Part shown: piece after piece, positions 5,173 to 62,693 of the stretch | How positions within the stretch are numbered: the first letter of the stretch is position 1 | Layout: each line of letters opens with the position of its first letter | Source of the DNA: FCB group bacterium | GTDB lineage: Bacteria; Zixibacteria; MSB-5A5; GN15; JAAZOE01 | Assembly: GCA_024231695.1 (NCBI GenBank) | Contig: JAAEQF010000118.1 | Coordinates: 1,086-65,085, forward strand | Direction: 5' to 3' | DNA: 64,000 nucleotides | Made by a program: the position numbers and the translations under genes | Notes under the pieces: generated by a model | The model's database searches: none | Told to the model about the DNA's origin: nothing | What the model saw: the letters and a program-made list of their open reading frames with translations, nothing else

Positions 5173-5892
5173 CTATTTTTCCAGTTCAATCGGGACGGTC
5201 ACGATGGTCGTATCCGCTCCGATAAATCCAAAAGTGATTGATCCCCCCTTGAAATCTTTATCCACCGGCAAAGCAGTAGCATTGATAAGTAATTCTTCTT
5301 TCGCATCATGAACAATATCCCGAGGCAAATCGATACTTTGTACCAGTTCTCCCGAAGAATGAAGGACGACAACCTTCAGCGTATCCGGCCCGGAATTGAA
5401 AAATTCCAGTGTTGTAGAAGAATCGGATATTTTGCCGTCTTTTACTTCCCACTGCAACTTCTGAGGTGTAATCGATATGTTTTCAGGAGATTCTTTCTTT
5501 TTATAAACGTAGGCCTTGAGCCAGATGCTGTATATCTGCTGTTGTGATTCGCTAATGAAAATCTGTGTAGCTTTTTTGGTGCGTTTATGGTATCGGCCCG
5601 ATTTGAAGAGGATATCAATCGCCGCGCTGTCACCGGGAGCGATAGGATGATTAATCTGAGATACGCTGGTGCAAGAACACCCGGCTTTGATTCGATCCAC
5701 CGGCAGAGAATCCGAACCGGTATTTATCAAATAGAACCGTTGGCCGACCTCCGACTTCTGAGGTAAAAAGCCGAAATCCCATGATCGCGGCCGGATGGTG
5801 ACATTGTCGTCCTGAGCCGACGCCGGAGATAACAAACCGGCCAAGACCAAAGCAACTATCATCGAGATTGGAATTCTTTTTATTGAAGCCAT
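5173..5892 (-). CDS. DUF1573-like exported protein (Cys form, CxC motif)
   Basis: Start at the internal Met, preceded by GGAGAA. Signal peptide MASIKRIPISMIVALVLAGLLSPASA. Module WDFGFLPQKSEVGQRFYLINTGSDSLPVDRIKAGCSCTSV...PGDSAAIDILF matches my recollection of DUF1573. Confidence 0.7.
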   Translation of the reverse strand: MASIKRIPISMIVALVLAGLLSPASAQDDNVTIRPRSWDFGFLPQKSEVGQRFYLINTGSDSLPVDRIKAGCSCTSVSQINHPIAPGDSAAIDILFKSGRYHKRTKKATQIFISESQQQIYSIWLKAYVYKKKESPENISITPQKLQWEVKDGKISDSSTTLEFFNSGPDTLKVVVLHSSGELVQSIDLPRDIVHDAKEELLINATALPVDKDFKGGSITFGFIGADTTIVTVPIELEK

Positions 5893-6095
5893 CGCTTCTC
5901 CGGGCTGAGATATTCGGGCAATCCGAGTACTTTCGGAAATATATTGGACAAATTGAGCCACGGCAAGGGAATTGTTGAGGTGTTAATTCCGATTGACAAA
6001 AGTGGGAAAACAGCTACTTTATAATTATAAGTGCTTATTCCAACATTCGACGGACTTCGTTATTGGCTAATTCATTTATCAATTCAGGCGGAGTT

Positions 6096-19979: not shown

Positions 19980-21215
19980 ATGCTTAGAATTTGTATCATC
20001 GTTACGGCGATTTTGTTTTTACCGCTAATGGCCGTTGGTCAGGACTGTATCGAGTGTCATAAGGAGATGACACCGGGTATAGTAAGCGATTGGCAAATAA
20101 GTAAACACAGTGAAAACGACGTATCCTGCGAGACCTGTCATGGTGAGGGACATACGACTGCGGCCGATGTCGCCAACGTCGAAATCCCGACACCGGCTAC
20201 CTGCGCCACCTGTCACGACACACAGGTGGAGCAGTTTTCCAAAGGGAAACATGCGCTGGGCTGGGCTTCGTACCGGGCCATGCCGACGACTCATCAACTG
20301 CCGATGGCTTTGCGCGAAGGCATGAAAGGCTGTGGCGGCTGTCACAAAATAGGCCTTAAAAGCGAAGAGGAAATCAAGGAACTCAAGGAACAGGGTTCCG
20401 GTTTCGGACTCGCCTCCTGCGACGCCTGCCATACCCGCCATACTTTTTCTGTCCATGAAGCCCGTCAACCACAAGCCTGCCAGACTTGTCACATGGGCTT
20501 TGATCATCCGCAATGGGAAATGTATTCATCATCAAAGCACGGCGTGCGCTACTTGTTAAAACAGAATGGCACTTTACCGGAAACGGTTTCGGCTCCCACC
20601 TGCCAGACCTGCCATATGGTTGACGGTAATCATGAAGTACGTACGGCCTGGGGATTCCTGGCCGTTCGCCTGCCTTTATCGGAAGACCCGCAGTGGAAAG
20701 CGGATCAGATCACTATATTGCAGGCTCTGGGCGTTCTTGATCTGGAAGGCAATCCTACCGGACGTCTGGACGTAGTCAAGGCTGCCGATGTGGCCCGTCT
20801 CGATCAGGAATCATTCGATGCCGAGCGAAACAAGATGCTGGCCGTCTGCAGTGATTGTCATTCGGAGAATTTCGCCAAAGCGGAAATGGCCAAAGGCGAC
20901 GATATGATCAGGGAAATTGATCACCTGCTGGCCGAGGGCATTCGGATTATCGCCGGATTGTATCAAGACGGCATTCTGATTAAACCGGAGAGTTACGCCA
21001 CGCCTTTCCCCGATCTGCTGACTTTCCATGACGCTCCTACACCGATCGAGCAGACGCTGTTTGAAATGCATCTCAAGCACCGCATGCGGGCCTTTCAGGG
21101 TGTCTTCCATTCCAACCCGGACTATGCTCTCTGGTACGGTTGGAGCGCGATGGTTCGTGATCTGTCCGAGATTAAACATATGGCCGAAGATATGCGCATT
21201 CATAAAGGCATGTAA
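19980..21215 (+). CDS. Periplasmic octaheme c-type cytochrome, hydroxylamine-oxidoreductase (HAO)-like family
   Basis: Signal peptide plus eight CxxCH motifs: CIECH, CETCH, CATCH, CGGCH, CDACH, CQTCH, CQTCH, CSDCH. CHMGFDHPQWEMYSSSKHG resembles HAO-family proteins. Confidence 0.75.
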   Translation: MLRICIIVTAILFLPLMAVGQDCIECHKEMTPGIVSDWQISKHSENDVSCETCHGEGHTTAADVANVEIPTPATCATCHDTQVEQFSKGKHALGWASYRAMPTTHQLPMALREGMKGCGGCHKIGLKSEEEIKELKEQGSGFGLASCDACHTRHTFSVHEARQPQACQTCHMGFDHPQWEMYSSSKHGVRYLLKQNGTLPETVSAPTCQTCHMVDGNHEVRTAWGFLAVRLPLSEDPQWKADQITILQALGVLDLEGNPTGRLDVVKAADVARLDQESFDAERNKMLAVCSDCHSENFAKAEMAKGDDMIREIDHLLAEGIRIIAGLYQDGILIKPESYATPFPDLLTFHDAPTPIEQTLFEMHLKHRMRAFQGVFHSNPDYALWYGWSAMVRDLSEIKHMAEDMRIHKGM

Positions 21216-25053: not shown

Positions 25054-25266
25054 ACTTCCTCCCGCTTAGGGTACTTTCCTTTTCGAGTCCTTATAAAGCG
25101 GTAATCATAAATACAGACGGGGCAATGCGGATATTGTTTACTTTTAACCGGTCAAGATCTTTTTTTTTGCATTCGGGAATCAAGCCCACCGGCAAACCAT
25201 TAAAGAGATTGCCAAATCAGACAATTGGAGTATATTGTTGCATCAATCATTGACCGAGGTTTTTAT

Positions 25267-26085
25267 ATGACTTCCAAATATTGTTTTTCAATTCTGGCGG
25301 CGCTGTCGATTCTGCTCCTATTTGCCATCGGTGGCTGCGGTAAGGACCCGGTATCGAGCCAGGACGATATTCAAACGATAAACGGCGACAGCCACGTTTT
25401 CTTCGGCGCGGAAGCAACCGATTCCATAGTCAGTTTCGACTTTGGGTACACTCCGCAAAGCTCAAAAATCAGTCATATCTACTGGCTTCATAACACCGGC
25501 GATGATTCTCTGAATATAGTCAATATCAACCCCGGCTGAGGCTGTACCAAGGCTCCGTTGGAAAGAACGGAGATTGCTGTCGGCGACAGCGTTAAGCTGG
25601 AAATATATTTTTCTACCTCAACGTATCGGGGAACGATAGTCAAACGACCGAAGATTTGTGTTGACCGCGATAGCCTGTGCCGCTATATAGAATTGAGGAC
25701 CAATGTAGTTGCCAAACCAGATTCGACCTATCCACTAGTCATTTCCCCTTACCGATTAATGCTAATGAAAACCGACAGTGTCGATATAACCTATATTGAG
25801 TTTCATATTTCCAACCGCTCCGACACGAGTATCTTTATCCGTCCTATTGACTATCCCAAAGACTACTTTGAGTTATTATTACCACCTGAAACAGTGCCGG
25901 ACTCATCGATTTCAGGTCACCTGACTCTGAATGGATTGGGGCTGCAAAATTCATTTAATAAATCGTTGACCTTTGAATGCGATGATGCTGTGCAATCGCG
26001 GTTCACCATTCCAATCGTCCGGCAAATTCTCGGTCAAGGCGAAGTCAATGCCGCCATCAATCTCGATCCGGAATGCCCTGAATAG
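25267..26085 (+). CDS. DUF1573-like lipoprotein read through an in-frame TGA at 25537-25539 (candidate selenoprotein, U-G-C in place of CxC)
   Basis: ORFs 25225..25539 and 25558..26085 share a frame. ATG at 25267 follows GAGG. Lipobox LLFAIGGC. The read-through gives one continuous module: SFDFGYTPQSSKISHIYWLHNTGDDSLNIVNINPG-TGA-GCTKAPLERTEIAVGDSVKLEIYF. Confidence 0.6.
25553..25572 (+). promoter_or_regulatory. Candidate bacterial SECIS-like hairpin
   Basis: CTCCGTT-GGAAAG-AACGGAG has a 7-bp perfect stem and a 6-nt loop. It starts 14 nt after the TGA, and the loop G residues lie 23-24 nt from the U of UGA. Confidence 0.4.
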
Positions 26086-26088
26086 GGT

Positions 26089-26604
26089 TTGGCAGAAACT
26101 ATCGCTATGCACGATGTATCCGACAATAACCCGGAAACACGTTTCATCTGCGATGATAATCTCGGAAAACTGGCCCGTTATCTTCGCGCCTGTGGATTCG
26201 ATACCTATTTCGATGACCATATCAGCGACAGTGATTTGATTACCATTGCCCTTGATGAAAACCGCCACATCCTTACTCGCGACCACAAATTGACCGAACG
26301 CACGCTGGTGCGGAAATATTTTCAGATTGAAGACGATAATTGGATGGATCAGCTGAGAGCCGTAATCAGCTATTATGAACTCAGAGTTTCTAAAAAGAAT
26401 ATATTTACCCGCTGTTTGGAAGATAACGTGTTAATCGAAACCGTATTAAAGCATAATATTAAAACTTTGGTGTATCCGTATATATACGAGAAGCATACTG
26501 GATTCAAACAATGTCCGCAATGCAAGCGAGTATTCTGGGCGGGCACTCATACCAGGGCGATTATCGAACGCCTAACCCTCGGTGGTATCAAGATATTAGA
26601 TTAA
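26089..26604 (+). CDS. Mut7-C RNase domain (DUF82) protein
   Basis: FICDDNLGKLARYLRACGFDT and C-terminal zinc-ribbon-like CPQCKRVFWAGTH. The true start may be the ATG at 26107. Confidence 0.7.
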   Translation: MAETIAMHDVSDNNPETRFICDDNLGKLARYLRACGFDTYFDDHISDSDLITIALDENRHILTRDHKLTERTLVRKYFQIEDDNWMDQLRAVISYYELRVSKKNIFTRCLEDNVLIETVLKHNIKTLVYPYIYEKHTGFKQCPQCKRVFWAGTHTRAIIERLTLGGIKILD

Positions 26605-26614
26605 TGTTCATGGC

Positions 26615-27466
26615 TCAGACCTCGGAACCAATATCCTTGACCGGTGGTTTGTATAAATATTCGAGAATCACTCGGCGGTCTTTCCCCTCGCCTTCGATCC
26701 GTTTGATATGAAGACTGACGCTATAGCCGTCCTCGGTTTCCATAATTATCCGAAGGTCAGATTTCAGCTTCAACCTTTCATAATGCGAGCCCACGGATTT
26801 ATATTTGTCCAGGCCATCTCCGACAATACCTGCAGCCACCATAAATATTTTCGATACCCTGTTGACCGGGCTCAGCCTCGAGGGCGAACATAGATAATCG
26901 ATCCCGTCTTTATGATAAAAATACAGGTCATTTTCCAGAGCATCGCTTTTGCAGTAATTGTCCTTAACGAAACTGAATCCGGCCTGATCGCCCGAGTAGG
27001 ATGTGGCCAGTTCGATCTCTCCCTGAGGATAGCAGACCAGTTCGATCTCGTTGGTCGGCAAAGAGAGACTTTTATCGTTGTAAACGGCCCGCATATGGAC
27101 ATAATAGCGGGTGGCGTTGGCAACGTTTTTGATCTCGAATGTTTCCCGACGAGCCGATCCTTCAGGATCACCGGGATAAACTTCGGGATTATGGGGCTGG
27201 ATTGACGAAGGTAAATCGCGGCCGGGATATTCTTTGGCCAACGGTCGCGGTGAAACATAAAAATTGAATCCGCGCATAATTCTGGTTCCGCTGCATCCCG
27301 GGTTATAGGCAACAATCGCCCGGCCGTTGCCGATGGTTTCTATTATCAGACCGCGCGGTTGACAGCGGACACTTTCGTCTCCACCACCGGTCGGCGGTCC
27401 ACAGGAGATTAAAAGGAAAATCGATGAAAATAGTAAAAGTCCGAGTCGCAGATAGTTCTTGGTCAT
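26615..27466 (-). CDS. Hypothetical lipoprotein
   Basis: MTKNYLRLGLLLFSSIFLLISCG lipobox. No domain recognised. Confidence 0.5.
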   Translation of the reverse strand: MTKNYLRLGLLLFSSIFLLISCGPPTGGGDESVRCQPRGLIIETIGNGRAIVAYNPGCSGTRIMRGFNFYVSPRPLAKEYPGRDLPSSIQPHNPEVYPGDPEGSARRETFEIKNVANATRYYVHMRAVYNDKSLSLPTNEIELVCYPQGEIELATSYSGDQAGFSFVKDNYCKSDALENDLYFYHKDGIDYLCSPSRLSPVNRVSKIFMVAAGIVGDGLDKYKSVGSHYERLKLKSDLRIIMETEDGYSVSLHIKRIEGEGKDRRVILEYLYKPPVKDIGSEV

Positions 27467-27558: not shown

Positions 27559-28326
27559 TTAATCAATCGTTCGGGCTTCGGGACCGGTGTATTCGAAATT
27601 TCTATTTCCAAGTTGGCGCATCGGTCGCTGAGTGGTCATCTCTTCATAAGTATGAGCGATCAATCCCGGGACGCGGGAAATCATGAAGAAACCTTTGCCC
27701 AGCCGCCAGTCGAAGCCCATATCGGAAATAACGGCGGCAATAGCGCCGTCAACATTGATCGGTAATCTGCGGCCACTGGCTTTTTCCAGTTCCGCTTCGA
27801 TAGCCCGGGCCAACTCAGTATGGCGGCCCGAGTAATCGAGCGTGGCTGCAATTTCAAACAGCTTGACCGTACGCGGATCGGTTTTATGCAGGCGATGGCC
27901 GAAACCGGGCATTCGCTTTTTAGCCGCGCGCATATCGGCGACCAGCTGGGCGGCCAGGTCCTCGACCGAACCCTCCTTGAGGGCCAGTTCCTGAATTATC
28001 CGAGCCGATTGCTCAATCGCACCACCGTGCGTATCGCCGATCACCAGCACTCCGCCGGCGACGGCGGCATTGAGGGAATTCCCGCCAGACATGACCGTCC
28101 GCGCACCCAAAACCGATGGCGGTGTGGCCCCGTGATCGATAGAGGAAACCAGAATGGCCTCCATCATCCGAGCCTGTTTTTCATCGGGTAATTCTCCGCG
28201 CAAAATCAAAAAGATCGCCTGAGCGAAAGATAACTTATCCATCATTTCGACGATATCATATCCGCGAACCCGGATTTTTCCGGGACCGATTTCGGTTATA
28301 CTGGTTTGCCATTTTTCTTCACTCAT
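27559..28326 (-). CDS. Citryl-CoA lyase-like protein (short citrate-synthase-fold enzyme)
   Basis: 255 aa, which is only the catalytic C-terminal part of the citrate synthase fold. Signature GFGHRLHKTDPR. Size and layout resemble the Hydrogenobacter-type citryl-CoA lyase as I recall it. Confidence 0.65.
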   Translation of the reverse strand: MSEEKWQTSITEIGPGKIRVRGYDIVEMMDKLSFAQAIFLILRGELPDEKQARMMEAILVSSIDHGATPPSVLGARTVMSGGNSLNAAVAGGVLVIGDTHGGAIEQSARIIQELALKEGSVEDLAAQLVADMRAAKKRMPGFGHRLHKTDPRTVKLFEIAATLDYSGRHTELARAIEAELEKASGRRLPINVDGAIAAVISDMGFDWRLGKGFFMISRVPGLIAHTYEEMTTQRPMRQLGNRNFEYTGPEARTID

Positions 28327-29150
28327 TTTCTGATTACCCTCATGTCTTCTATTGTATCGTTTTCAACCGTCCCGTCCGGATCGGCGCATTGCCCACGGGC
28401 GAAATCGAGCCAGTTTGTTTCGAATTCATCTATCGGAAGCTGGAAAATAGTTTCAATCGACTTTTGCCAATCAACCGATGATTTCCATAACATGTACAGG
28501 CGCGGAGTGCCGTAATTGAACATGATAAAGCCACACAATGAGGCCGCCTCGGCCCGTCTGGTGGAAAAGTGCAGGGAGTCGAGTTTGACGTTATCACCCA
28601 GATCGAGCAGGCGGGTTAGCTGTCCGGAGTTATTTAGACGATTGGCCTTATCGTGGTAATTGAGGCCGGAGAAGTCTAGTAAATGAGGTACTCCCTCGTT
28701 CAGCACTTCGAAATCCCCCGGTTTGATACCGTTTTGTCCCAAGAGGAATTTAGTCAGCTGATAACCGTAGGGATAAAGGCCGCCCCAGTGAATCGAATTT
28801 TCTGTGGAAAAAGGTATTTTTTGATCACCCAGCATTTCAATTGTTTCCGGTCCGGGAGTGTAAACATACAGATCTATTGTCTCCTTAGGCATCGGAAATT
28901 CGAGTATGCTGCACAGTTCTTTCAGGAATCGATCATATCCCTGACCCAACTCGGCCTGACGTTCCAGCCAGGACGATTGCCGCGAGAAATGGAGATTGAA
29001 ATGAGTGGAACTATACGTTGCCCAATCGGCATATTTATCGGTATTGACCTGTGGTTCATCCGCGCCGCAGGATATCATCAGAAAACATAAAATCGCCAAC
29101 GCCACACTGGCCGGACCCGTTTTGCCCGAAAACCATTTGCCTGTCTTCAT
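28323..29150 (-). CDS. Hypothetical lipoprotein
   Basis: Internal Met start. MKTGKWFSGKTGPASVALAILCFLMISCG has a lipobox. Its stop overlaps the start of the citryl-CoA-lyase-like gene (ATGA). Confidence 0.5.
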   Translation of the reverse strand: MKTGKWFSGKTGPASVALAILCFLMISCGADEPQVNTDKYADWATYSSTHFNLHFSRQSSWLERQAELGQGYDRFLKELCSILEFPMPKETIDLYVYTPGPETIEMLGDQKIPFSTENSIHWGGLYPYGYQLTKFLLGQNGIKPGDFEVLNEGVPHLLDFSGLNYHDKANRLNNSGQLTRLLDLGDNVKLDSLHFSTRRAEAASLCGFIMFNYGTPRLYMLWKSSVDWQKSIETIFQLPIDEFETNWLDFARGQCADPDGTVENDTIEDMRVIRK

Positions 29151-29256
29151 TTGCAATTTCCTATCCTCCCTGGCAAAATCATTCAATAATTATTTAAACC
29201 GCTAATGTAATCGCTTTTGATCGCCGCGTCAACCCTCTCTCCAGTGGGCTCCGACC

Positions 29257-30527: not shown

Positions 30528-32381
30528 TCAGCTAATCTCAATGGCGTCAAAAGTGCACACGGTATAACAGGAACCGCATTGCGTGCATTTATCCTGATCC
30601 AACACATGTATCTTTTTCTTCTCGCCGGTAATGGCCTCGGTCGGACAAGCTTTGATACAAGCCAGACAACCGGTGCATTCGTCGGTGATTTCGAATTTTA
30701 TTAAATTGCGACAAACCCCGCCCGGACATTTTTTGTCGCGCACGTGGGCCAGATATTCCTCACGGAAATATTGCAGCGTACTCAGGAAAGGATTCGGGCC
30801 CGATTGTCCCAGCCCGCAAAGCGATCCGACCTGAATCGATTTGGACAGTTTTTCCATCAAATCCAGATCGTCCTCGGTGGCCTCACCCTCGCAAACTTTG
30901 GAGCATAATTTATGAAGTTGATAAAGCCCTTCGCGACAGGGAACGCATTTGCCACAGGATTCCATTACCAGAAATTCGAGGAAATAGCGGGCCACGTCAA
31001 CCATGCAGGTATGATCGTCCATAATAACCATGCCGCCCGAACCCATCATCGAACCGGCTTCGGTCAAGGAATCGAAATCGCAGGCCAAATCCAGCTTATC
31101 GGCCGGCAGGCAACCGCCGGAGGGACCGCCGGTCTGTACCGCTTTAAATTCGCGTCCGCCGGGGATACCGCCGCCGATATCGAAAATGATTTCCCGGAGA
31201 GTAATCCCCATGGGGACTTCGACCAGCCCGGAATTTTTAATCTTCCCCGCTAATGAGAACACTTTGGTTCCCGAGCTTTTGGCTGTACCTATCGAGGAGA
31301 ACCAGTCGGCTCCCTTTTCGATGATCATTGGAACCGTGGCGAATGATTCGACATTGTTAAGAACGGTCGGTTTGTCGTGCAAGCCCTGGACAACAGAATG
31401 AATATATTTGGCTCGTGGTTCGCCGACTTCTCCGGCCACCGATTTCATCAGGGCCGATGATTCGCCGCAAACGAACGCTCCGCCGCCGCGATTGACCTGA
31501 ATATCGAAGCAGAAATCGGTACCGAGAATGTTATCACCCAACAGACCGTTTTCACGAGCATCTTCGATGGCCTTCTGCAGGTTGATTACGGCCATGGGGT
31601 ATTCTTCGCGAACGTATATGTAGCCTTTGGTCGAGCCAACAGCATAAGCACAGGTGATCATCCCTTCTAAAACCGAATGTGGATCGCTGCCCATCAGCGT
31701 TCGGTCCATAAAGGCCCCGGGATCGCCTTCGTCGCCGTTGCAGATGACATAACGAATATCGGCGTCGATTTTGGCACAGGTGGCCCATTTGCGTCCGGTC
31801 GGAAATCCGCCGCCGCCTCGACCGCGCAGGCCGGATTTGGAAACCTCGTCGATTACCTGCTGAGGAGTCATTTCGATTAACGCTTTGGCCAGACCCTGAT
31901 AGCCGCCCCGGGCGACATATTCGTTGATTTTGTTGGGGTCGATCAATCCGGCGTTGCGCAAAGCAATCCGCTGTTGCCGGGCGTAGAACGGAATCTGATT
32001 ATAATCGGCAATCCGCTTTTTGGTGTTGGCGTCTTTGTAGAGCAGACGCTCGATAATCTCGCCGTTTTCGATAGTTTTTTCAACGATATCGGGAATGTGA
32101 ATCTTTTTGACCTTGGTGTAAAAAGTGCCTTCCGGCTCCAATATCACCAGCGGCCCCAAAGCGCAGTATCCGTGACAGCCGGTTTTGGTAACCGTTTCAA
32201 CGGACACGTCGGTGATGTTTTTATCGGCCAGGACTTTCTTGAATTCCTCGTATACCTCGACCGCGCCATTGGCTCGGCAGGCCGTCCCGACACAGATCAA
32301 AATCCGGCGTTGACGGGCTTCAAATTCGGTTTTGCATTCCGTGCGCCACTTATTCAGTTGATCTATATTTTCAATACGCAT
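30528..32381 (-). CDS. NuoF-like NAD(P)H-binding flavoprotein subunit (HydB/HndC type)
   Basis: GLRGRGGGGFPTGRKW (FMN/NADH site) and ESCGKCVPCREG (N3 cluster). N-terminal thioredoxin-like 2Fe-2S (CVGTAC...GCHGYCALGP). Two C-terminal 4Fe-4S motifs (CTGCLACIKACP, CTQCGSCYTVC). Confidence 0.9.
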   Translation of the reverse strand: MRIENIDQLNKWRTECKTEFEARQRRILICVGTACRANGAVEVYEEFKKVLADKNITDVSVETVTKTGCHGYCALGPLVILEPEGTFYTKVKKIHIPDIVEKTIENGEIIERLLYKDANTKKRIADYNQIPFYARQQRIALRNAGLIDPNKINEYVARGGYQGLAKALIEMTPQQVIDEVSKSGLRGRGGGGFPTGRKWATCAKIDADIRYVICNGDEGDPGAFMDRTLMGSDPHSVLEGMITCAYAVGSTKGYIYVREEYPMAVINLQKAIEDARENGLLGDNILGTDFCFDIQVNRGGGAFVCGESSALMKSVAGEVGEPRAKYIHSVVQGLHDKPTVLNNVESFATVPMIIEKGADWFSSIGTAKSSGTKVFSLAGKIKNSGLVEVPMGITLREIIFDIGGGIPGGREFKAVQTGGPSGGCLPADKLDLACDFDSLTEAGSMMGSGGMVIMDDHTCMVDVARYFLEFLVMESCGKCVPCREGLYQLHKLCSKVCEGEATEDDLDLMEKLSKSIQVGSLCGLGQSGPNPFLSTLQYFREEYLAHVRDKKCPGGVCRNLIKFEITDECTGCLACIKACPTEAITGEKKKIHVLDQDKCTQCGSCYTVCTFDAIEIS

Positions 32382-32382
32382 A

Positions 32383-32838
32383 TCAATCCTTTTTCACCAG
32401 ACGCATGGCCTGATCGACGCGGACATTGCCATGATATTTTTCGTTGACCGTTATCACCGGAGCCATGGCGCAAACACCAACGCAGTTGACTACCTCGATG
32501 GTGAATTTCATATCCTCCGAGGTCTCCCCCGCTCGAATATTGAGTCCGGCTTCCAATTGCTCAAGAAGCAGACCGGCGCCCTTGATATGACAGGCTGTGC
32601 CTTTGCAGATGCGGATGATTTTCTCGCCTCGGGGGGTCAAGCTGAAAGCGTTGTAGAAGGTCGTAACATTGAAGACCTTGCTTAAGGGGACATTCAAAGC
32701 TTTGGCCGTTTCCACCAAAGCCTCGCACGGCAGATAGTGAAACTCGCGTTGAATATCCTGAAGGACGCTAATCAGCGCATCCGGTGTCTGAGGATTGCGT
32801 TCGATAACTTCGCGTATCCTGCTTAAATCATGATCCAT
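32383..32838 (-). CDS. NuoE-like 2Fe-2S subunit (HydC/HndA type)
   Basis: CKGTACHIKG...VNCVGVCAMAP thioredoxin-like 2Fe-2S motif. 151 aa. Confidence 0.9.
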   Translation of the reverse strand: MDHDLSRIREVIERNPQTPDALISVLQDIQREFHYLPCEALVETAKALNVPLSKVFNVTTFYNAFSLTPRGEKIIRICKGTACHIKGAGLLLEQLEAGLNIRAGETSEDMKFTIEVVNCVGVCAMAPVITVNEKYHGNVRVDQAMRLVKKD

Positions 32839-32848
32839 TCATTTACCT

Positions 32849-33400
32849 CTATGCGCTGACTTTTTCGATCAGCTTGCGGCCTTCCTCGAAAGCCCTGAAA
32901 TTTATATCCAGAAATTCTTTTTTCTTACCCATTTTCTCTTTGAGCATAATGCCCAGCGTTTCGAAAGAAACGATCCCGGTGGCCGCCACATAGGCCGCCA
33001 GCATGACCATGTTGGCCGCTTTGGGACTGCCGCACTCACGAGCGATATCGTTGGCCGGTACCAGAAACTCGGTGATGTCGCTGCGTTCAGATTTGATATC
33101 GATCAGGCTGCTGTTGATCAGAAGCAAGCCGTCTTTCCTGATCATGGCGCCGAACTTGTCCAGCGAAGGCCGGTTGAAAACGCAGGCCGCCAAGGGCATA
33201 TTGATAATCGGCGAACCGATCCGTTCGTCGGATATGACTACCGTGCAATTGGCCGTACCTCCACGCATTTCGGGGCCGTAGGACGGAATCCAGCAAACCT
33301 GTTTACCCTCTTCCATAGCCGTATAGGCCAGAAGCTGACCGGCCGTCATTACGCCTTGACCGCCGAATCCGGCAAATACTACTTCTCTCTGTCCCCCCAT
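32849..33400 (-). CDS. 2-oxoacid:ferredoxin oxidoreductase gamma subunit
   Basis: FAGFGGQGVMTAGQLLA...SYGPEMRGG pattern. Confidence 0.85.
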   Translation of the reverse strand: MGGQREVVFAGFGGQGVMTAGQLLAYTAMEEGKQVCWIPSYGPEMRGGTANCTVVISDERIGSPIINMPLAACVFNRPSLDKFGAMIRKDGLLLINSSLIDIKSERSDITEFLVPANDIARECGSPKAANMVMLAAYVAATGIVSFETLGIMLKEKMGKKKEFLDINFRAFEEGRKLIEKVSA

Positions 33401-33401
33401 C

Positions 33402-34157
33402 TCAGACCTCCTCCGCTTCCGGGTCTTTATAAATTCCCAGCGGATAATACGGTTCCATATCGCTGGCCACCCAGTCGGTCGAATCGGCCGGCGATATACC
33501 CCAGTTGGTCGGACAGGTGGAAAGCACCTCGATCATGGTAAAACAGCGGTTTTCCTTCTGCAACCGGAAGGCCTTCTTGATAATCTTTTTGGCGTTGACG
33601 ATATGCATCGGAGTATGCACTGCGACCCGGGCGATAAAACTGGGCGTTTTCAAAGTTGACAAAAGTTCGGCCATCCGAATCGGATGTCCGGCCAGGTTCA
33701 CATCGCGGCCGGCCGGGCTTGTGGTGGTTCGTTGCTGAGGCATGGTCGTCGGAGCCATCTGTCCGCCGGTCATGCCGTAAATGGCATTATTAACGAAGAT
33801 GGTCGTGAACTTCTCACCCCGGTTGGCGGCATGGACAATTTCACCCATGCCGATCGAGGCCAGGTCGCCGTCGCCTTGATAGGTAAAAACGATCATATCC
33901 GGCCGGGTCCGCTTGAAACCGGTGGCCAGAGCCGGAGCCCGCCCATGAGCGGCCTCCATGAAATCGCAATTAAAATAGTTATAAGCCAACACCGAACAGC
34001 CCACCGGAGCCACACCGACGGTACGATCGCGAATTCCCAATTCATCCAGCGATTCGGCCACCAGCCGATGGATTACGCCGTGCGTACATCCCGGACAATA
34101 ATGGGTGATATTGTCACTCATGGCCGTGGGCCGTGAGAAAATTGTCGTGGTATCCAT
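33402..34157 (-). CDS. 2-oxoacid:ferredoxin oxidoreductase beta (TPP-binding) subunit
   Basis: YCPGCTHG and TPP motif GDGDLASIGMGEIVHAANRGEKFTTIFVNNAIYGMTGGQ. Ends with a TGA stop. Confidence 0.9.
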   Translation of the reverse strand: MDTTTIFSRPTAMSDNITHYCPGCTHGVIHRLVAESLDELGIRDRTVGVAPVGCSVLAYNYFNCDFMEAAHGRAPALATGFKRTRPDMIVFTYQGDGDLASIGMGEIVHAANRGEKFTTIFVNNAIYGMTGGQMAPTTMPQQRTTTSPAGRDVNLAGHPIRMAELLSTLKTPSFIARVAVHTPMHIVNAKKIIKKAFRLQKENRCFTMIEVLSTCPTNWGISPADSTDWVASDMEPYYPLGIYKDPEAEEV

Positions 34158-34181
34158 CTTATCCTCGTTTTCTTTCGAAGA

Positions 34182-35255
34182 TCACTTTTTGGTTCCCAGA
34201 AGAGAACGCACTTTCTCCTTGACTTCGTCGGGCGTGGGCACGATGCCGCCGGTATGACCGAAAAACTCGATCGGCTTGATACTTTTGGTGCAACGTTCAA
34301 TATCCTCGACCATCTGCCCGGTGCTCATCTCGATAGTCAAAACTTTTTTGATATTACTTTTGGCCGCTTCGGTATAAATCTCTTTTTCCGGGAAAGGAAA
34401 CAGGGTAATCGGCCGGAATAGTCCGACGCTGATTCCCTCTTCCTCCAATTCGTCGATAGCCGTCTGGCAAATACGCGACATGGTGCCGTAAGAAGCGATC
34501 AGGATTTCGTTTCTATCAGAAACCTTGTACAGTTCGTAGCGGACTTCTTCGGCTCGTGCCTTTTTGTATTTTGCTTCCATAACCAGGCAATTGTCTTCCA
34601 GTTGCTGGGGATCGAGAAAAAGCGATTTGATCAAACGCGCTTTGCGGTCCTTCGCGCCGGTCAGGGCCCAATCCGATTTATCCGGATCGTTCTCGGCCCG
34701 ATATTCCTTAGGAAATTCGACCGACTCCATCATCTGCCCGATCATGCCGTCGCCGATGATCATCACCGGATTGAGGTATTTTTCGGCCAGATCAAAAGCG
34801 AGGATGGTCAGATCGACAGCCTCCTGCACCGAGGCCGGAGCCAGAACGAGTAAACGATAATCGCCGTGACCGCCACCCTTGACCGATTGGAAATAATCGG
34901 ACTGCGCCGGCAGAATACCACCCAGACCGGGGCCGCCGCGCATTATATTGAGCAAAACCACCGGCAAGTGAGCGCCGGCCATGTAAGATATCGCCTCCTG
35001 CATCAGACTTACGCCGGGGCTGGATGAAGTCGTAAAGACCCGCTTGCCGGTCGAGGCTGCTCCGAAAAGCATGTTGCCCACGGCCACTTCCGACTCGGCC
35101 TGGACAAAAACGCCATCGATCTCGGGAAGCCGCCAGCATAAATATTCGGCCACTTCACTCTGCGGGGTGATCGGGTAGGCAAAGTAATGTCGCGACCCGG
35201 CGGCTATTGCCGCTTCGCCAATCGCTTCGTTGCCTTTCATCAATTTTTTGGCCAT
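34182..35255 (-). CDS. 2-oxoacid:ferredoxin oxidoreductase alpha subunit
   Basis: MKGNEAIGEAAIAAG...FAYPITPQSE N-terminus is typical of Kor/Vor/Por alpha. 357 aa. Confidence 0.9.
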   Translation of the reverse strand: MAKKLMKGNEAIGEAAIAAGSRHYFAYPITPQSEVAEYLCWRLPEIDGVFVQAESEVAVGNMLFGAASTGKRVFTTSSSPGVSLMQEAISYMAGAHLPVVLLNIMRGGPGLGGILPAQSDYFQSVKGGGHGDYRLLVLAPASVQEAVDLTILAFDLAEKYLNPVMIIGDGMIGQMMESVEFPKEYRAENDPDKSDWALTGAKDRKARLIKSLFLDPQQLEDNCLVMEAKYKKARAEEVRYELYKVSDRNEILIASYGTMSRICQTAIDELEEEGISVGLFRPITLFPFPEKEIYTEAAKSNIKKVLTIEMSTGQMVEDIERCTKSIKPIEFFGHTGGIVPTPDEVKEKVRSLLGTKK

Positions 35256-54139: not shown

Positions 54140-55705
54140 TTATGACTGCCGTTCAAAACAAATCCGGCCGTGTGGATAATCGATCAGCAATCTGAAATCG
54201 CGCATAATGCCCACACCCAAGAGGCCCTCGATATAATCCGGCAATGGCAGCCCCGAAAAGTCCTCCGATATCAACACCGATTGCTTCTCCAAAATTATTC
54301 GGCCGAGGCGAAGGGAATCGATTATGGCTGAGGCCATTGACTGACTACCGCCGATTCCGCCCATATTAACTCTTCCCAAACTATCGCCGATCTGCTCCTT
54401 CAACATCGGATAGAGCCGGGCGTTCCCTCTGATGACCATAGTCGGTTGCGCACCCAAATCGACTCCCAGGCGAATCGGCTGTCCATTGATAAATCCTTCC
54501 ATAACCGGTATTTGGGCGAAGATGTCAATCGGTACTATCTCGCCGTTGGCTGGAAGGTTTTCATATTCAGGATGATAGACCGTCATTTTTTCAGCAACAA
54601 AATCTATTTTCATCGGAAACCGGGCAAAAAAATCATAACCAAGTACTCCATCCAAATCGGCCAAAAGTCCTCCGGCGATGGTTTCCAAATCAAGGATGGT
54701 AATACGATCCAGATAAAGCGACAGCCCGCCGAAATTGAGCGAATCAATCTCACCGAAACCGATGCGACTGTATCCTCCGACACCCCTCGCCGGCACTTCG
54801 CCAACAACTTTGATCCCCAGCTCATCGGCCAGACTTGCGGCCACGAATGTCATCCCCGCCCCGCTGTCCAGAAGAAACATAAACGGCCCCCGGCCGTTGA
54901 TCATCGTTTCCAACTGAATGTGATTATTCTCGAAATGAAACGGAAGGACCACCGAATCGGCCCCATCGGCAAAAAGGAAATCATCACCGGATTTGCCGGG
55001 GATCGCAAACAGCGAATCGGGCAAGTTTTCATTGATCCGAAGGGAATCCATCCACCCCTTTACTTCGTAGGGCGCGCCGACAGTTTTACTGACCATGACA
55101 AAGGGAATATAAACCCCTTCTATTTGGCGGAAATCGCTGTAAGAGGTCATCATCAACAATCCGGTAATAACCTCACGTCGAAAATCAACCTGGCCGGTGG
55201 AGGTATTGATATAAATCGACAGCGAATCACCGCCTTCGGGAAAAAGAGCCAGCTTGTGATATTTCCCGCCATCGATCAGGGTATCGCCGCGATAAACCGT
55301 CCGCCCCGGATTGCCACCCGGCAACGCGTATGAGTAACTTTGATAATACATTTCATTGATCATCGGTTTGAGCGTTTCGGCGATATCCCGCTTGACTATT
55401 CCATTGGGATCGATCGACCAGCCGGTCAATCCATTAAAGCCCATCACTTGAGACATGACACCCATATCAATTTCGGCCCGGTACTGGAACGGATATTTGA
55501 CCCAGCCGATCTGAGTGCCGCTCATACCCATGCCTTCTACAGTGGCATAGGAAATTACTGATTTGATGCGGGATAATGCCTCCCGCCCGCCCAAAGCTTT
55601 GATATTTTTATCCAGCACGGTTTCCAGAGTTTCGGCCGCACCGGTCGAAATCAAACCGCCGCATATTAGCATAGCGGTAAATATCAAAATCACCATTCGT
55701 CGCAT
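54140..55705 (-). CDS. Secreted protein with two retropepsin-like aspartyl protease domains
   Basis: Signal peptide. FLLDSGAGMTF (DSG) and a second degenerate VDLGAQPTMV site. Confidence 0.55.
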   Translation of the reverse strand: MRRMVILIFTAMLICGGLISTGAAETLETVLDKNIKALGGREALSRIKSVISYATVEGMGMSGTQIGWVKYPFQYRAEIDMGVMSQVMGFNGLTGWSIDPNGIVKRDIAETLKPMINEMYYQSYSYALPGGNPGRTVYRGDTLIDGGKYHKLALFPEGGDSLSIYINTSTGQVDFRREVITGLLMMTSYSDFRQIEGVYIPFVMVSKTVGAPYEVKGWMDSLRINENLPDSLFAIPGKSGDDFLFADGADSVVLPFHFENNHIQLETMINGRGPFMFLLDSGAGMTFVAASLADELGIKVVGEVPARGVGGYSRIGFGEIDSLNFGGLSLYLDRITILDLETIAGGLLADLDGVLGYDFFARFPMKIDFVAEKMTVYHPEYENLPANGEIVPIDIFAQIPVMEGFINGQPIRLGVDLGAQPTMVIRGNARLYPMLKEQIGDSLGRVNMGGIGGSQSMASAIIDSLRLGRIILEKQSVLISEDFSGLPLPDYIEGLLGVGIMRDFRLLIDYPHGRICFERQS

Positions 55706-55765
55706 GGTTATGCAAACCTCCCTTAATTCAAACAACTATACGCAAATAATCGAAACGAAAAGGCC

Positions 55766-57001
55766 TCAATATTCCTGCCAGCGATAATCGGCCAGAACCA
55801 ACATGCCGATCAGCACCCAGAAAAAAACAAGCGAAGTACCGCCATAGCTGACAAACGGCAACGGCAGACCGGTCACCGGCATTAACCCCAGAGTCATGCC
55901 GATGTTGACCATCATCTGGAAAAAAATAATCGTCACCGCTCCCCAGGCAATTGTCCCCATAAAGGTCGAACGGCATTTGGCGGCTATTTTCATTCCTCGA
56001 ATCAGAATAAAAGCGAATAGACCGATGACTACGGCACAGCCGACAAAGCCAAGTTCTTCGCCCAGCACAGAGAAGACAAAATCGGTATGGCGAACCGGCA
56101 AATATTCCAGTCGTGATTGTGAACCATCCAAAAAACCTTTGCCGAATAGTCCGCCCGATCCGATGGAGATGATGGATTGAATAATCTGGTAACCGGCCCG
56201 TTGAGGATCACGACCGGGATCGAGAAAAATCAGGATTCTCATTTTTTGATAATCAGCCAGCCGGTTCCAAACCATCGGCGTCATCATCCCGAAAGCAAGA
56301 TTGACAATGGTGGCCGACACTCCAATCAGGACTCCGGGGCGGCCGATAAATAGCATGATCAGAAAGAGGACCAGATAAATAACCCAGGCCAGCCAGTGAA
56401 AGGCAGTAATCATGGAAATAATCGGCGAAACGATCAGGATCAAGTACAACGGCGACAGTCCGGAGAAAAACCAGAGGGAAAAGAGAATCACGAAATAAAC
56501 CAGCGAGGTTCCCAAATCGGGTTGTTTAAGAATCAACATTACCGGGATAATGGTCAAAATAAGCGATAACACCAGCCGTCGGATCGATTCCGGGGGTAGT
56601 TTGGTATAGGCGAAAAAGCGAGCCAGAGCCATCAGCACCGCCAGCTTGGCGAACTCAGATGGTTGGAAATTAACCGGGCCGAGTGAAAACCAGCGAGCCG
56701 CGCCCATTTTCTGGGCACCGACGATAACAACGGCAGCCAACATTACCAGCATCAACAAATAGAACAGATAAGCGACAAAATCGTAGAAACGAGGTGGCAT
56801 GGCGACGGTGACGCTGAAGGCAACCAAGGCGATAACCAGCCAGATCGATTGCTTGACATAATGTTTCTGATCTGTAGTATTATCGCTGTAATACTGGGCC
56901 GAAAATATCAGCAAGATACCGATTACCGAAAGCAAAAGCGCGGCCGTGATCAGCTTCCAGTCCAGATTCGGCAGAGCCAATGGATTTAGGCGTCCCATCA
57001 C
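55766..57001 (-). CDS. rodA: Rod shape-determining protein RodA (SEDS family)
   Basis: 10-TM FtsW/RodA/SpoVE pattern, ...TDFVFSVLGEELGF..., LPFVSYGGTS. Overlaps mrdA by 4 nt. Confidence 0.9.
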   Translation of the reverse strand: MMGRLNPLALPNLDWKLITAALLLSVIGILLIFSAQYYSDNTTDQKHYVKQSIWLVIALVAFSVTVAMPPRFYDFVAYLFYLLMLVMLAAVVIVGAQKMGAARWFSLGPVNFQPSEFAKLAVLMALARFFAYTKLPPESIRRLVLSLILTIIPVMLILKQPDLGTSLVYFVILFSLWFFSGLSPLYLILIVSPIISMITAFHWLAWVIYLVLFLIMLFIGRPGVLIGVSATIVNLAFGMMTPMVWNRLADYQKMRILIFLDPGRDPQRAGYQIIQSIISIGSGGLFGKGFLDGSQSRLEYLPVRHTDFVFSVLGEELGFVGCAVVIGLFAFILIRGMKIAAKCRSTFMGTIAWGAVTIIFFQMMVNIGMTLGLMPVTGLPLPFVSYGGTSLVFFWVLIGMLVLADYRWQEY

Positions 57002-58806
57002 CGGCCCTCCCCGGCCAACGGCAGCCGGTCACCAATCAGGTTATGTTTTTCCAGATAGGTCTTGATAATTTTGCGCACCGCCGGAGCGGCCCAATCCGAG
57101 CCATGCCCGGCATTCTCCATAATCACACAGGCAACAATCTCCGGATTATCGGCGGGAGCAAAGCCGACGAAAAGTGAATGTTCCAAACCGTGCGGATTTT
57201 GCGCAGTACCGGTTTTGCCGGCCATCAGCACGCCGTCGATTTTTGATCCCCGCGCCGTGCCCTGCTCGCCATGCATAACCGCAACCAGCCCTTCCTTTAG
57301 GATTTGAAGGGTCGCTTCAGAAAAAGGCAGGCTAAACGCCAACTCACCACCCTTGGAGGTTTCTCGACCGTCGGGACCGACAATCGATTTCAACAGGTGC
57401 GGCTTGAAGACCTGACCATGATTAGCCAGTCCACAGTAGAACTGTGTCAGTTGAAGTGGCGTGGACAGCACTTCTCCCTGCCCTATGCCGAGATTTAAAA
57501 GTACTGCCAGAGTCCATTGGCGGAGACCGATATGGCGATCATACCAGTCCTTGTCGGGCACGTTCCCCAAAGCCTCCTGCGGCAAATCAACTCCTGTTTT
57601 ATGTCCGAAACCACAGGCGGTGGAAAAACGGTGATAATCGGCCAGGCCCATTTTATACGCCAGTTGGTAAAAATAGACGTCACAGGACCTCTCGATCGAC
57701 GGTATCAGAGGCAGGCGACCGTGTCCCCCCAAATCCCAGCAGTGAAATGCCCGGATGCCGAATTGATAAGCTCCGGTACACCCGGAAAACATAGTGTGTC
57801 GGTCGATCAATCCCAGTTCCAATCCTGCTCCCGCCACCAGAAGTTTATAAGTTGATGCAGGCGGATACTGGCCGTCGAGGGGACGGTTGAGCAAGGGGTT
57901 GTTGGTATCGGCCAAAATGGATCGCCACAGGCTGTCGGGTATTACACCTGAGAATATGTTGGCATCATTGGCTGGTGACGAGGCCATGGCCAGAATTTCC
58001 CCGTTGCGGGGATCCATGACCACTGCCGCGCCACAGAAATCGCCGAGCGCTTCGGTGGCGACTTTCTGAATATCCCGATCAATGGTCAGAATCAGATCAC
58101 TGCCTGTTTCGGCGGCTACGCCCGGCTGATCGGCCAATACGCCCAACAGCTGACCCGAGGCGGCGATTTCGATATACTCGGTACCCTCCAGTCCGCGCAG
58201 TTCCCGGTCGTAAAATTTCTCAATACCCGATTTGCCGATCATGGTTCCGGCCCGGTAAATTGAGATATCCAATTTTTTCATTTCCTCAGATGATATCTCG
58301 CCCACATAACCGGTAAAACACTCGCCCCCCAACTCCTCGGTATATTTGCGCACTTCATCCTTACTGTACACGGCTCCGGGATAAAGCTCGTTCTGCTCTT
58401 CCAAAACGGCGACTTTATCGAAACCGACATCCCGCTTAATCACCGCCGGTTGAAAGCGACCGGTCAGATTTCGGCGAATACGGCGATTAAGGCTTTCTTC
58501 ACTTATTTCCAATAGGGCCGACAATCGCTCCAGAGTCGGCGTCCGAGAGACTTCGGCCGGAACCACGGCCAATGAATAGGCGGCCCGGTTGTCAATCAAC
58601 AACCGTCCTTCGCGATCAAAGACAAGTCCTCTTTTGGGAACAACCGGTTGGATGCGAATGCGATTGTTTTCAGACTGGGTATAGAGGTTTTGATGACGAA
58701 ACGTCTGCAGATAAAACATGCGCCCCAATAGTAGAGCCAGAAAAAGAGAGCAAAAAATGCTTCCGATAAGAAATCTTTGCGGCAGACTTAGACGACGACT
58801 TGACAT
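56998..58806 (-). CDS. mrdA: Penicillin-binding protein 2
   Basis: SxxK (ASTYK) and KTGTA motifs, an N-terminal anchor, and its position between mreD and rodA. Confidence 0.9.
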   Translation of the reverse strand: MSSRRLSLPQRFLIGSIFCSLFLALLLGRMFYLQTFRHQNLYTQSENNRIRIQPVVPKRGLVFDREGRLLIDNRAAYSLAVVPAEVSRTPTLERLSALLEISEESLNRRIRRNLTGRFQPAVIKRDVGFDKVAVLEEQNELYPGAVYSKDEVRKYTEELGGECFTGYVGEISSEEMKKLDISIYRAGTMIGKSGIEKFYDRELRGLEGTEYIEIAASGQLLGVLADQPGVAAETGSDLILTIDRDIQKVATEALGDFCGAAVVMDPRNGEILAMASSPANDANIFSGVIPDSLWRSILADTNNPLLNRPLDGQYPPASTYKLLVAGAGLELGLIDRHTMFSGCTGAYQFGIRAFHCWDLGGHGRLPLIPSIERSCDVYFYQLAYKMGLADYHRFSTACGFGHKTGVDLPQEALGNVPDKDWYDRHIGLRQWTLAVLLNLGIGQGEVLSTPLQLTQFYCGLANHGQVFKPHLLKSIVGPDGRETSKGGELAFSLPFSEATLQILKEGLVAVMHGEQGTARGSKIDGVLMAGKTGTAQNPHGLEHSLFVGFAPADNPEIVACVIMENAGHGSDWAAPAVRKIIKTYLEKHNLIGDRLPLAGEGR

Positions 58807-60672: not shown

Positions 60673-61632
60673 TTATTGTTCAAATACCCCCATGCGGCGA
60701 TACTTTGCGATTCTCTGCATGATCAATTCATCCGGTGACAACCGGTCGAGTTCGCCCAGTGCCTTCACTACCGTTTCTTTCAGATTGGCCGCCGCGACAT
60801 TCATATCGCGATGGGCCCCGCCCTCTGGCTCGGGAATGATGCCGTCGATCAAATCCAATTTTTCCACGTCCGTTGCCATCAATTTCAACGCTTCGGCCGC
60901 CTCGGGCGCCTTGGCCGCGTCGCGCCACAGAATGGCCGCACAACCCTCAGGTGAAATCACCGAATACCAGGAATTTTCCATCATGTAAACCCGATCGCCA
61001 AGTCCTATCCCTAAGGCTCCCCCGGAGGCGCCTTCACCGATAATTGTAATCACGATGGGTACTTCCAACATGGACATTTCGCGCAGGTTGTGGGCGATCG
61101 ATTCGGCTTGTCCCCGCTCTTCGGCGCCTATTCCCGGAAAAGCTCCGATCGTATCAATAAAGATAACGATGGCACGATTAAACTTGGCCGCCATTCGCAT
61201 CAAACGTAAAGCCTTGCGGTACCCTTCCGGATTGGCCATGCCGAAATTCCGAAACAAATTGCTTTTAGTGTCCCTACCCTTTTGCTGTCCAATAACCATG
61301 ATCGGCCGGCCGTCAAGGCGGGCAAAACCGCCGACCATTGCTTTGTCGTCGGCGAAATAACGGTCCCCGTGAAGTTCCACGAAATCGGTGGTCAGTAATT
61401 TAATATAGTCCAGCGTGTACGGCCTTTTGGGATGGCGCGCCAGTTGTACTTTCTGCCAGCGGGTCAGATTGGAGAAAATATTATCCTGCAACTTCTTGAG
61501 CTTGTTCTGCAGAGATTGTATTTCTCCATCAAGCTCAATATTCTCGACCCGACTGAACTCTTCCATGTCGGAAATCTTTTTTTCAAGTTCCAGAATCGGC
61601 TTTTCAAATTCCAGGTACGGCCCCTCAATCAT
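60673..61632 (-). CDS. accA: Acetyl-CoA carboxylase carboxyltransferase alpha subunit
   Basis: [34 protein letters not shown] and [10 protein letters not shown]. Confidence 0.95.
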
Positions 61633-62693
61633 CGATACAACTCTTTCCCATTCTTTTCGGCTTTAGCGAGCCTAAATCTAAACAATATCCCGAAAATTAC
61701 AACCATAAAAACGACCAAAATGGTGAACACAGCCCGCTTATCAAATATAAACATCGCCCCCGAAAATACAGCAAATATGGCCGACAAAAGATAGAACAAC
61801 CAAACCACCTGCGATTTCGACAGGCCGGAAGTGGCCAGAAAATGAAACAGGTGCCGATTGTCCGCCACATAAAATTTCTTCCCGGTTACCGTCCTTCGGA
61901 CAAATGATACTACCGTTTCGATGATCGGCACCCCCAGAGCCACCAACGGTACAAATACGGCCGCCGTCGTGTAGGATTTGAGGGGAAATAAAATCGATAT
62001 AACGGCAAAAAGATAACCCAGAAAAAGCGAACCGCTGTCGCCCAGGAAAACTCGGGCCGGATAATGATTGAAATAGAGAAAAACCAGACAGGTTCCGATT
62101 ATTGCCGCGGTGAAAACCATAACTGTACTCAGGTGAAAAAAGATGCCGACAAAAAGCAGGGCCAAAGCGGCGATAGCCGAAACCCCGGCGGCCAGGCCAT
62201 CCAGACCATCAATCAAGTTAATGCTATTGATCAAGCCTACCAGCCAGATCAAAGTAATCGGCAAAGACAAATATCCAAGCTCCACCGGTCCGTATAGCGG
62301 AATAAACAGTATTGTGATTCCCAGCCCGCCGTAATACAGAATCAACCCAACAATAATCTGGGCCATCAGTTTAACCAGCGCGGAAATTTCGGCCAGGTCG
62401 TCAATCAGCCCGGTCAGAAAAACGATGACGCCGCCGGCAATGACAAAATAGAGAAACGGATCGAGCTCCAAAGCAATTTCCGGATATAATTGATAGGATA
62501 GGGCCACCGCCGCCCAAAAGCCGGAAAAGATGCAAATCCCGCCGAGATTAGGAGTTGGAAATCGATGTCTCTTATGTTCGCCGGGCATATCCAAAATTCC
62601 AGCCCGGAAACAGAGACGGCAGACCATAGGAATCATCACCCCGGTGACGATACCGCCGATGGCGAATATTTTTAGTAAATCAATCCAGCTCAC
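61629..62693 (-). CDS. MraY/WecA-family polyprenyl-phosphate sugar-1-phosphate transferase (GT4)
   Basis: About 10 TM segments, with [18 protein letters not shown] and FLGDSGS motifs. Confidence 0.85.

Follow-up and report, generated by a model that had tools for sequence, protein, structure and literature searches.

We analyzed a 64,000-nucleotide stretch of contig JAAEQF010000118.1 from a Zixibacteria-lineage FCB group bacterium, hereafter the window, in which a gene for a DUF1573-domain protein is interrupted by an in-frame TGA codon. Two open reading frames (ORFs) on the forward strand, 25225..25539 and 25558..26085, share a single frame at this locus, and only the TGA at 25537-25539 and a further 18 nt, or six sense codons, part them, as a preliminary description of this DNA had reported. 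Read through the TGA, the locus contains one complete coding sequence at 25267..26085 (+) of 272 codons, counting the predicted selenocysteine (Sec) codon, with a TAG stop at 26083-26085. This assignment was obtained by reading the ORFs and aligning the product with about 57 orthologues, and a GAGG sequence is located 10-13 nt 5′ of the ATG at 25267. The translation begins with an N-terminal signal peptide (25267..25338, +) that closes on a lipobox-like I-G-G-C sequence (Cys24), whereas the signal peptides of the orthologues end in ..AAP. The predicted selenoprotein would be exported and is probably a lipoprotein, its lipobox being assigned from the general consensus. The corrected gene model for the window thus replaces two fragments with one putative exported selenoprotein of 272 residues.

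The read-through protein matches the DUF1573 profile PF07610 with 56.2 bits (E value 3.7e-15; gathering threshold 26.1) across model positions 7-97 of 98. The matching immunoglobulin (Ig)-like domain comprises residues 56-146 (25432..25704, +), and the TGA, as residue 91, lies inside the match, in agreement with the earlier proposal that read-through restores one uninterrupted domain. The TGA itself (25537..25539, +) occupies the first position of a U-G-C-T motif (25537-25548) and is predicted to be a Sec codon from its alignment with a nearly invariant Cys. The C-terminal half, kept downstream of the TGA (25705..26082, +), forms a second Ig-like β-sandwich domain. It is defined by columns conserved in the orthologue alignment, namely PDSTYP, N183, SxT and RFTIP, and by the AlphaFold model of the Cys-containing orthologue P0008, which comprises two β-sandwich domains with a predicted local distance difference test (pLDDT) score of 92.8. 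A Foldseek search with this model recovered nothing more specific than generic Ig folds of the ASH/PapD type (Hydin, CEP192 SPD-2 and 2qsv), and the fold therefore gives no functional lead. Sequence searches of the PDB produced either no match or non-significant ones.

The protein search identified about 57 full-length orthologues of 235-250 residues, and all of the named ones derive from metagenome-assembled genomes (MAGs) of Zixibacteria. These orthologues carry a Cys at the TGA column (Cys91, at least 90% conserved), within a nearly invariant PG-C-GCTKAPL sequence. A distant DUF1573 paralogue within the window (5173..5961, −; delimited as 5173..5892 in the preliminary description), recognized by its Pfam match and used as a comparator only, reads AG-C-S-C-T at the same column. 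Both comparisons place the TGA at the first Cys of a C-x-C motif, as proposed in the preliminary description. Three database proteins, P0001, P0059 and P0060, are recorded in the databases as C-terminal fragments of 155-175 residues. P0059 and P0060 are short protein matches lacking a Pfam domain, and their contigs (L001 and L002) reveal them to be the C-terminal fragments of genes with a TGA at the identical column (position 2968 in L001 and 516 in L002).

To sample the TGA forms at the DNA level, metagenome contigs were scanned with a pattern for [IV]xPG-TGA-xCTxAPL, which gave at least 120 matches. About 115 of those listed are genuine DUF1573 genes, in which an FDFGYxPQ...H.FW motif precedes the TGA and 165-205 conserved codons follow it, and about 6 are chance matches. 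The same pattern with TGH, applied to one representative genome per GTDB species, also gave at least 120 matches, and among those listed TGA forms outnumber Cys forms by 66 to 39. Combined, the two scans showed TGA precisely at the residue-91 column in at least 172 distinct sequences, followed by 165-205 conserved codons; TAA or TAG was never found there. The TGA forms of the species-representative scan come from MAGs designated Zixibacteria, Ignavibacteria/-ales/-ceae, GN15 or just “bacterium”, among them the complete chromosomes CP070674.1 (L134) and CP070824.1 (L193), and a TGA form is also carried by assembly GCA_008633255.1 (contig SWCD01004834.1). Judged from these alignments, the recurrence of TGA at one column in at least 172 sequences from other contigs, with coding conserved on both sides, is far beyond chance. 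A neighbor-joining tree of 97 Sec and 44 Cys forms requires at least 18 switches between the two, so that the alternation of TGA and Cys codons within conserved surroundings, suggested earlier as a check on orthologues, is indeed observed. The window protein is a divergent member of this group, with about 41% identity to its nearest relatives, whether Sec or Cys forms.

We compared the RNA structure downstream of the TGA in the pool of at least 172 distinct TGA forms and in 48 Cys forms, codon-aligned from the TGA. A first hairpin, H1, resembles a selenocysteine insertion sequence (SECIS) in its canonical position and extends over 25550..25575 (+), corresponding to positions 14-39 counted from the T of TGA. 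Its 7-bp core stem (25553-25559 paired with 25566-25572, CTCCGTT/AACGGAG) encloses the loop GGAAAG at 25560-25565, which starts 20 nt past the UGA. Folding of the window sequence gave −10.7 kcal/mol with a z-score of −3.85, and none of 200 shuffled sequences was equally stable, which supports the 7-bp hairpin that the preliminary description had placed at 25553-25572. According to the consensus for bacterial SECIS (bSECIS) elements (PMC13188914, Fig. 2 legend), the loop comprises 3-9 nt with a G in its first two positions, the upper stem 4-16 bp and the UGA–loop spacing 16-37 nt, with a minimum free energy (MFE) of −7.5 kcal/mol or below. The window H1 satisfies all four constraints with its GGAAAG loop, 7-bp stem, 20-nt spacing and energy of −10.7 kcal/mol, and the bacterial SECIS geometry first suggested for this site is thereby upheld.

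H1 is a general feature of the TGA forms and is present in all 121 non-redundant ones. Its loop starts 17-21 nt past the UGA in 120 of these and at 23 nt in the remaining one, and a G is located within the first two loop bases in 95. TGA forms fold here at a mean of −10.3 kcal/mol, compared with −3.5 kcal/mol for Cys forms (p = 3e-20). In explicit pair counts, 81.5% of cells are paired in the fixed register, as opposed to 36-56% with slid partners. Pair 18/35 covaries (UA 57, AU 21, GU 10 and GC 9), with the wobble base of an Ala codon compensating for an amino-acid change six codons further on. The conservation of the downstream hairpin, also proposed as a check, is therefore seen both in its presence and covariation among TGA forms and in its weakness among Cys forms.

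Directly abutting H1 we identified a second hairpin, H2, which the preliminary description did not remark upon and which is conserved more strongly than H1. H2 (25576..25590, +; positions 40-54) has the sequence GCTGTC-GGC-GACAGC, comprising a 6-bp stem and a GGN triloop, and encodes A-V-G-D-S; it was delineated from motif and codon counts. The exact motif GCTGTC-GGN-GACAGC occurs in 131 of 172 TGA forms but in only 2 of 48 Cys forms, and the hairpin is more stable in the former (p = 2e-19). Within the 1.6 Mb of related DNA that we fetched, the motif occurs 144 times: 142 occurrences lie exactly 39 nt past the start of a TGA, two follow a TGY at this position, and none is found elsewhere. The window contains it once, against 0.02 expected occurrences. 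Codon choice is equally constrained. The 138 TGA forms that encode A-V-G-D-S use GCT in 138, GTC in 136, GGT in 116, GAC in 138 and AGC in 133 cases, while the background shares of these codons in the same genes are 0.19 for GCT, 0.33 for GTC, 0.25 for GGT, 0.42 for GAC and 0.19 for AGC. By these counts, the synonymous sites of H2 are frozen. Cys forms mostly encode A-P-G-D-S at this site, and H2 offers a clean case, amenable to testing, in which protein sequence is dictated by an RNA signal, with A-V-G-D-S in Sec forms and A-P-G-D-S in Cys forms.

The TGA forms that lack H2 are informative about its possible role. All nine have a tight H1 loop of 3-5 nt containing GG (GGT in four, GGA in three, TGGAT in one and GGAC in one), whereas an H1 loop starting with G(G)T occurs in only 7 of the 163 TGA forms that have H2. 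Among the TGA forms without H2 is a subgroup with the sequence U-A-C-T-R-A-P-L-V-K-E (L027, L064, L071, L075 and L123), in which (A/P/T)-P-G-E-C replaces A-V-G-D-S. H1 in this subgroup has 8 bp and a GGU triloop, GCUCCUUU-GGU-AAAGGAGC, a loop of the type found in H2 elsewhere. Although the sample of H2-less forms is small (n = 9), this pattern suggests that a GGN-triloop hairpin is the contact for SelB and that it is normally located in H2.

Tandem DUF1573 arrays that mix TGA and Cys forms are common among the fetched loci, with copies about 0.8-1 kb apart, and neighboring Sec forms are common as well. One locus carries three TGA forms in a row (L140:1933-3940), and tandem arrays are also present in L016, L037, L059, L097 and L113. 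A Sec form lies beside a Cys form in L015, L025, L034, L039, L053, L095, L103, L115 and L118. In L219, a Cys copy that retains the full H2 hairpin adjoins a Sec copy, an arrangement suggestive of a recent change from Sec to Cys. A generic scan of all fetched loci for Sec/Cys pairs gave no credible further selenoprotein, its output being dominated by shadows of conserved genes in alternative frames.

Given the Sec/Cys pair, the conserved coding sequence that flanks the TGA on either side and the confinement of both hairpins to TGA forms, we propose, with a probability of roughly 0.9, that the UGA at 25537-25539 of the gene at 25267..26085 is decoded as selenocysteine, giving U-G-C where most relatives have C-G-C. 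Selenoprotein predictions are normally accepted on comparative sequence evidence of this kind and strength. Recoding would be guided by RNA structure that lies within the gene just past the UGA, with H1 and H2 recruiting SelB and Sec-tRNA(Sec) as in ordinary bacterial Sec insertion. The product would be exported and would consist of two Ig-like domains in tandem, with the U-G-C center in the first, DUF1573.

The division of labor between the two hairpins is less certain. The frozen synonymous sites of H2, together with the tight GG-containing H1 loops of the nine TGA forms without it, lead us to consider a two-part element. H2 could tentatively be regarded as the main SelB contact and H1 as a positioning helix, a view we hold with somewhat less than even confidence; the alternative is that H1 alone serves as the SECIS. 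More speculative still, and on balance doubtful, is the broader proposal of a new two-part class of bacterial SECIS, in which a covarying H1 would act as spacer and a near-invariant GCUGUC-GGU-GACAGC H2, fixed 39 nt past the start of the UGA, would be the real SelB site. The same proposal would make the clade a large and systematically mis-annotated group of selenoproteins in sediment Zixibacteria and Ignavibacteria, with TGA forms outnumbering Cys forms.

Several observations weigh against decoding of the UGA as selenocysteine or against the structural model that accompanies it. ARAGORN detected no tRNA-Sec across the 64-kb window and the 1.6 Mb of fetched loci, the only DNA that this search covered. 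A tblastn search of the same 1.6 Mb with E. coli SelA, SelB and SelD found nothing but one weak GTPase match in L161, and no sel genes were present among the ten largest candidate ORFs of the window. The TGA of the window is known from assembled sequence alone. On the structural side, RNAalifold applied to the 121-sequence alignment returned only trivial helices, with neither H1 nor H2 as a consensus, and the H1 register moves by one codon in some sequences. The H2 loop starts 42 nt past the UGA, outside the published range of 16-37 nt, and H2 on its own fails the bSECIS model in both spacing (42 nt) and MFE (−6.8 kcal/mol). An Rfam search of 25400-25750, at the gathering threshold and at E ≤ 10, gave nothing beyond three tRNAs, though an Rfam model for such an element was not expected.

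The preliminary description had presented the gene as a candidate for a new selenoprotein family and knew of no described DUF1573 selenoprotein. The selenoprotein assignment stands, whereas the claim of novelty does not. Two reviews, PMC9312934 (2022) and PMC13188914 (2026), list a “DUF1573 domain-containing protein, PF07610, motif UGC” among the prokaryotic selenoprotein families, and both credit it to the Olavius symbiont metagenome study of Zhang and Gladyshev (2007; PMC1976440). Its place in the table marks it as the one named OS_HP2 in the 2007 paper. Residues 56-128 of the window protein align with the corresponding NCBIfam model, NF041425.1 “OS_HP2 family (seleno)protein”, at 51.1 bits (E = 1.3e-13). 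Alignments of this model to the same residues have E values from 1e-13 to 1e-22, and the U-G-C-T of the window agrees with the UGC of the reviews in having Sec at the first position of U-G-C within the DUF1573 domain.

A genuinely new family, independent of anything described, is a reading to which these results leave very little room. In its favor, neither the window protein (51.1 bits) nor the nine diverse TGA forms (51-79 bits) reach the curated NF041425.1 cut-off of 100 bits, the clade has a second Ig-like domain, and literature searches on selenoproteins in Zixibacteria or Ignavibacteria returned nothing relevant, with no paper on selenoproteins in Zixibacteria found. Against it, the Pfam family, the UGC motif, the column and the NF041425 alignment all agree with the described family, which the two reviews list in exactly these terms, and we therefore assign the clade as a subfamily rather than a new family. 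By profile comparison, the window gene is an unannotated member of a large sister clade of the described DUF1573/OS_HP2 family, placed outside the curated subfamily. Because the clade lies outside curated NF041425, the databases hold its members as fragments: they do not reach the NCBIfam score at which they would be annotated as selenoproteins, and their public records are truncated ORFs. The clade is nevertheless abundant in sediment and groundwater MAGs, where Sec is commoner than Cys among the matches listed.

In other systems, read-through of a stop codon can be stimulated by structures 3′ of it. It is accordingly conceivable that the UGA is read through without selenocysteine, by hairpin-stimulated near-cognate or suppressor decoding as Trp, Cys or Gly, or under an altered genetic code, and the unverified Sec machinery of the host would be compatible with this. 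We nonetheless consider such decoding highly improbable. As an ordinary stop, TGA is used more often in the window than either other stop codon, ending 23 of the 55 likely genes, among them apt (9586) and the OFOR beta gene (33402), both already named as examples in the preliminary description. The genetic code is therefore standard, and an alternative code was rejected on the basis of stop-codon usage in the window. Moreover, the codon occurs only at the redox-type Cys of the C-x-C motif, and its repeated switching with Cys is a signature of Sec rather than of leaky termination; H1 matches the bSECIS model, and the same domain family is already catalogued as a selenoprotein. The weakest explanation, that the TGA is a true stop in a pseudogene, an assembly error or the end of one of two separately translated ORFs (25225..25539 and 25558..26085), finds some backing in the splitting of such genes by gene callers and public databases (P0001, P0059 and P0060 as fragments of 155-175 residues) and in the lack of Sec machinery in the window or the 1.6 Mb of loci, but can be dismissed because the stop codon at this one column is TGA in at least 172 distinct sequences and TAA or TAG in none, with the domain and 165-205 codons conserved beyond it, because the Pfam domain spans the TGA so that the downstream ORF would start in the middle of a β-sandwich domain, and because the hairpins specific to TGA forms would be left unexplained.

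We know of no activity for any DUF1573 protein. The predicted occurrence of Sec in the DUF1573 C-G-C motif speaks for a catalytic or redox function of the motif and against a structural one. The U/C-G-C pair could act as an extracytoplasmic redox center, forming a selenylsulfide or disulfide, or as a center for binding soft metals. Around the 185 TGA-form genes, a GWxTD-domain protein (PF20094) is encoded downstream on the opposite strand in 66 loci, a TlpA/AhpC-TSA-like thioredoxin directly downstream in 21, and a DUF2284 metal-binding protein together with an ArsR regulator upstream in 12-13. Examples of such neighboring genes are found at L223:5600-7057(−), L063:1086-1820(−), L024:4166-4756(+) and L089:3394-3795(+). 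These neighbors would be compatible with an extracytoplasmic role in thiol/selenol redox chemistry or in metal(loid) binding, although functional inference is weak because the gene neighborhoods are not uniform.

The neighbors in the window itself differ, with TonB upstream and a Mut7-C RNase downstream. The Mut7-C RNase-domain gene (PF01927, 136 bits; 26089-26604, +) starts 4 nt past the stop of the selenoprotein gene on the same strand, and the two genes are therefore possibly co-transcribed. This pairing is absent from the 22 largest neighbor families of the other loci. Converging on the Mut7-C gene is a gene for a predicted lipoprotein of 283 residues (26615-27466, −; LLISCG) that matches no Pfam family. 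The window also encodes a multihaem cytochrome c of 411 residues (19980-21215, +; PF13447 and PF13435), located a few kb 5′ of the selenoprotein gene.

Two further regions of the window contain genes of note. The citrate synthase match of a 255-residue ORF (27559-28326, −) is confined to the C-terminal part of that enzyme (positions 162-355 of the model), and a 287-residue ORF without a Pfam match (28323-29186, −) lies upstream of it with a 4-nt overlap. OFOR and NuoF-like genes (30528-35255) are located near this pair, which might encode a citryl-CoA lyase-type enzyme or a split citrate synthase. Elsewhere, a 531-residue ORF (54140-55735, −) contains two retropepsin-like aspartyl protease domains (PF13650 and PF13975) and lies within a cell-wall gene cluster that includes a PBP transpeptidase (56998-58806) and a family-4 glycosyl transferase (61629-62693).

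Comparison with known systems places the predicted selenoprotein closest to the DUF1573/OS_HP2 family, as represented by its model and by the reviews. Both have the same PF07610 domain, Sec in place of the first Cys to give a U-G-C motif, homologues that contain Cys instead and a stem-loop past the UGA. The two differ in architecture, the window clade having two Ig-like domains and about 250 residues while the NF041425 model has 98 positions. They also differ in distribution: the window clade is found in Zixibacteria, Ignavibacteria and GN15 MAGs, and OS_HP2 in deltaproteobacterial Olavius symbionts.

With C-x-C and C-G-C redox motifs, the window protein shares two redox-capable residues one Gly apart and a predicted extracytoplasmic location, and a thioredoxin-like neighbor accompanies 21 of the 185 TGA loci. 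Its scaffold, in contrast, is an Ig-like β-sandwich and not a thioredoxin fold, and metal binding is an equally possible function.

The SECIS of E. coli fdhF is a single in-frame hairpin about 11 nt past the UGA with a bulged U, and a G-G/U step in its apical loop is thought to contact SelB. The window gene likewise has in-frame hairpins past the UGA, and the H2 loop reads GGU in 116 of the 138 A-V-G-D-S forms. There is no sequence similarity between the two elements, the window gene has two stacked hairpins where fdhF has one, and SelB binding to the window hairpins is predicted. With respect to the consensus bSECIS model, H1 fits, whereas a tandem second hairpin of invariant sequence such as H2 is absent from the model as quoted in PMC13188914. 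The invariant H2 may thus extend the bacterial SECIS model, and it is the one feature of this locus that deserves follow-up.

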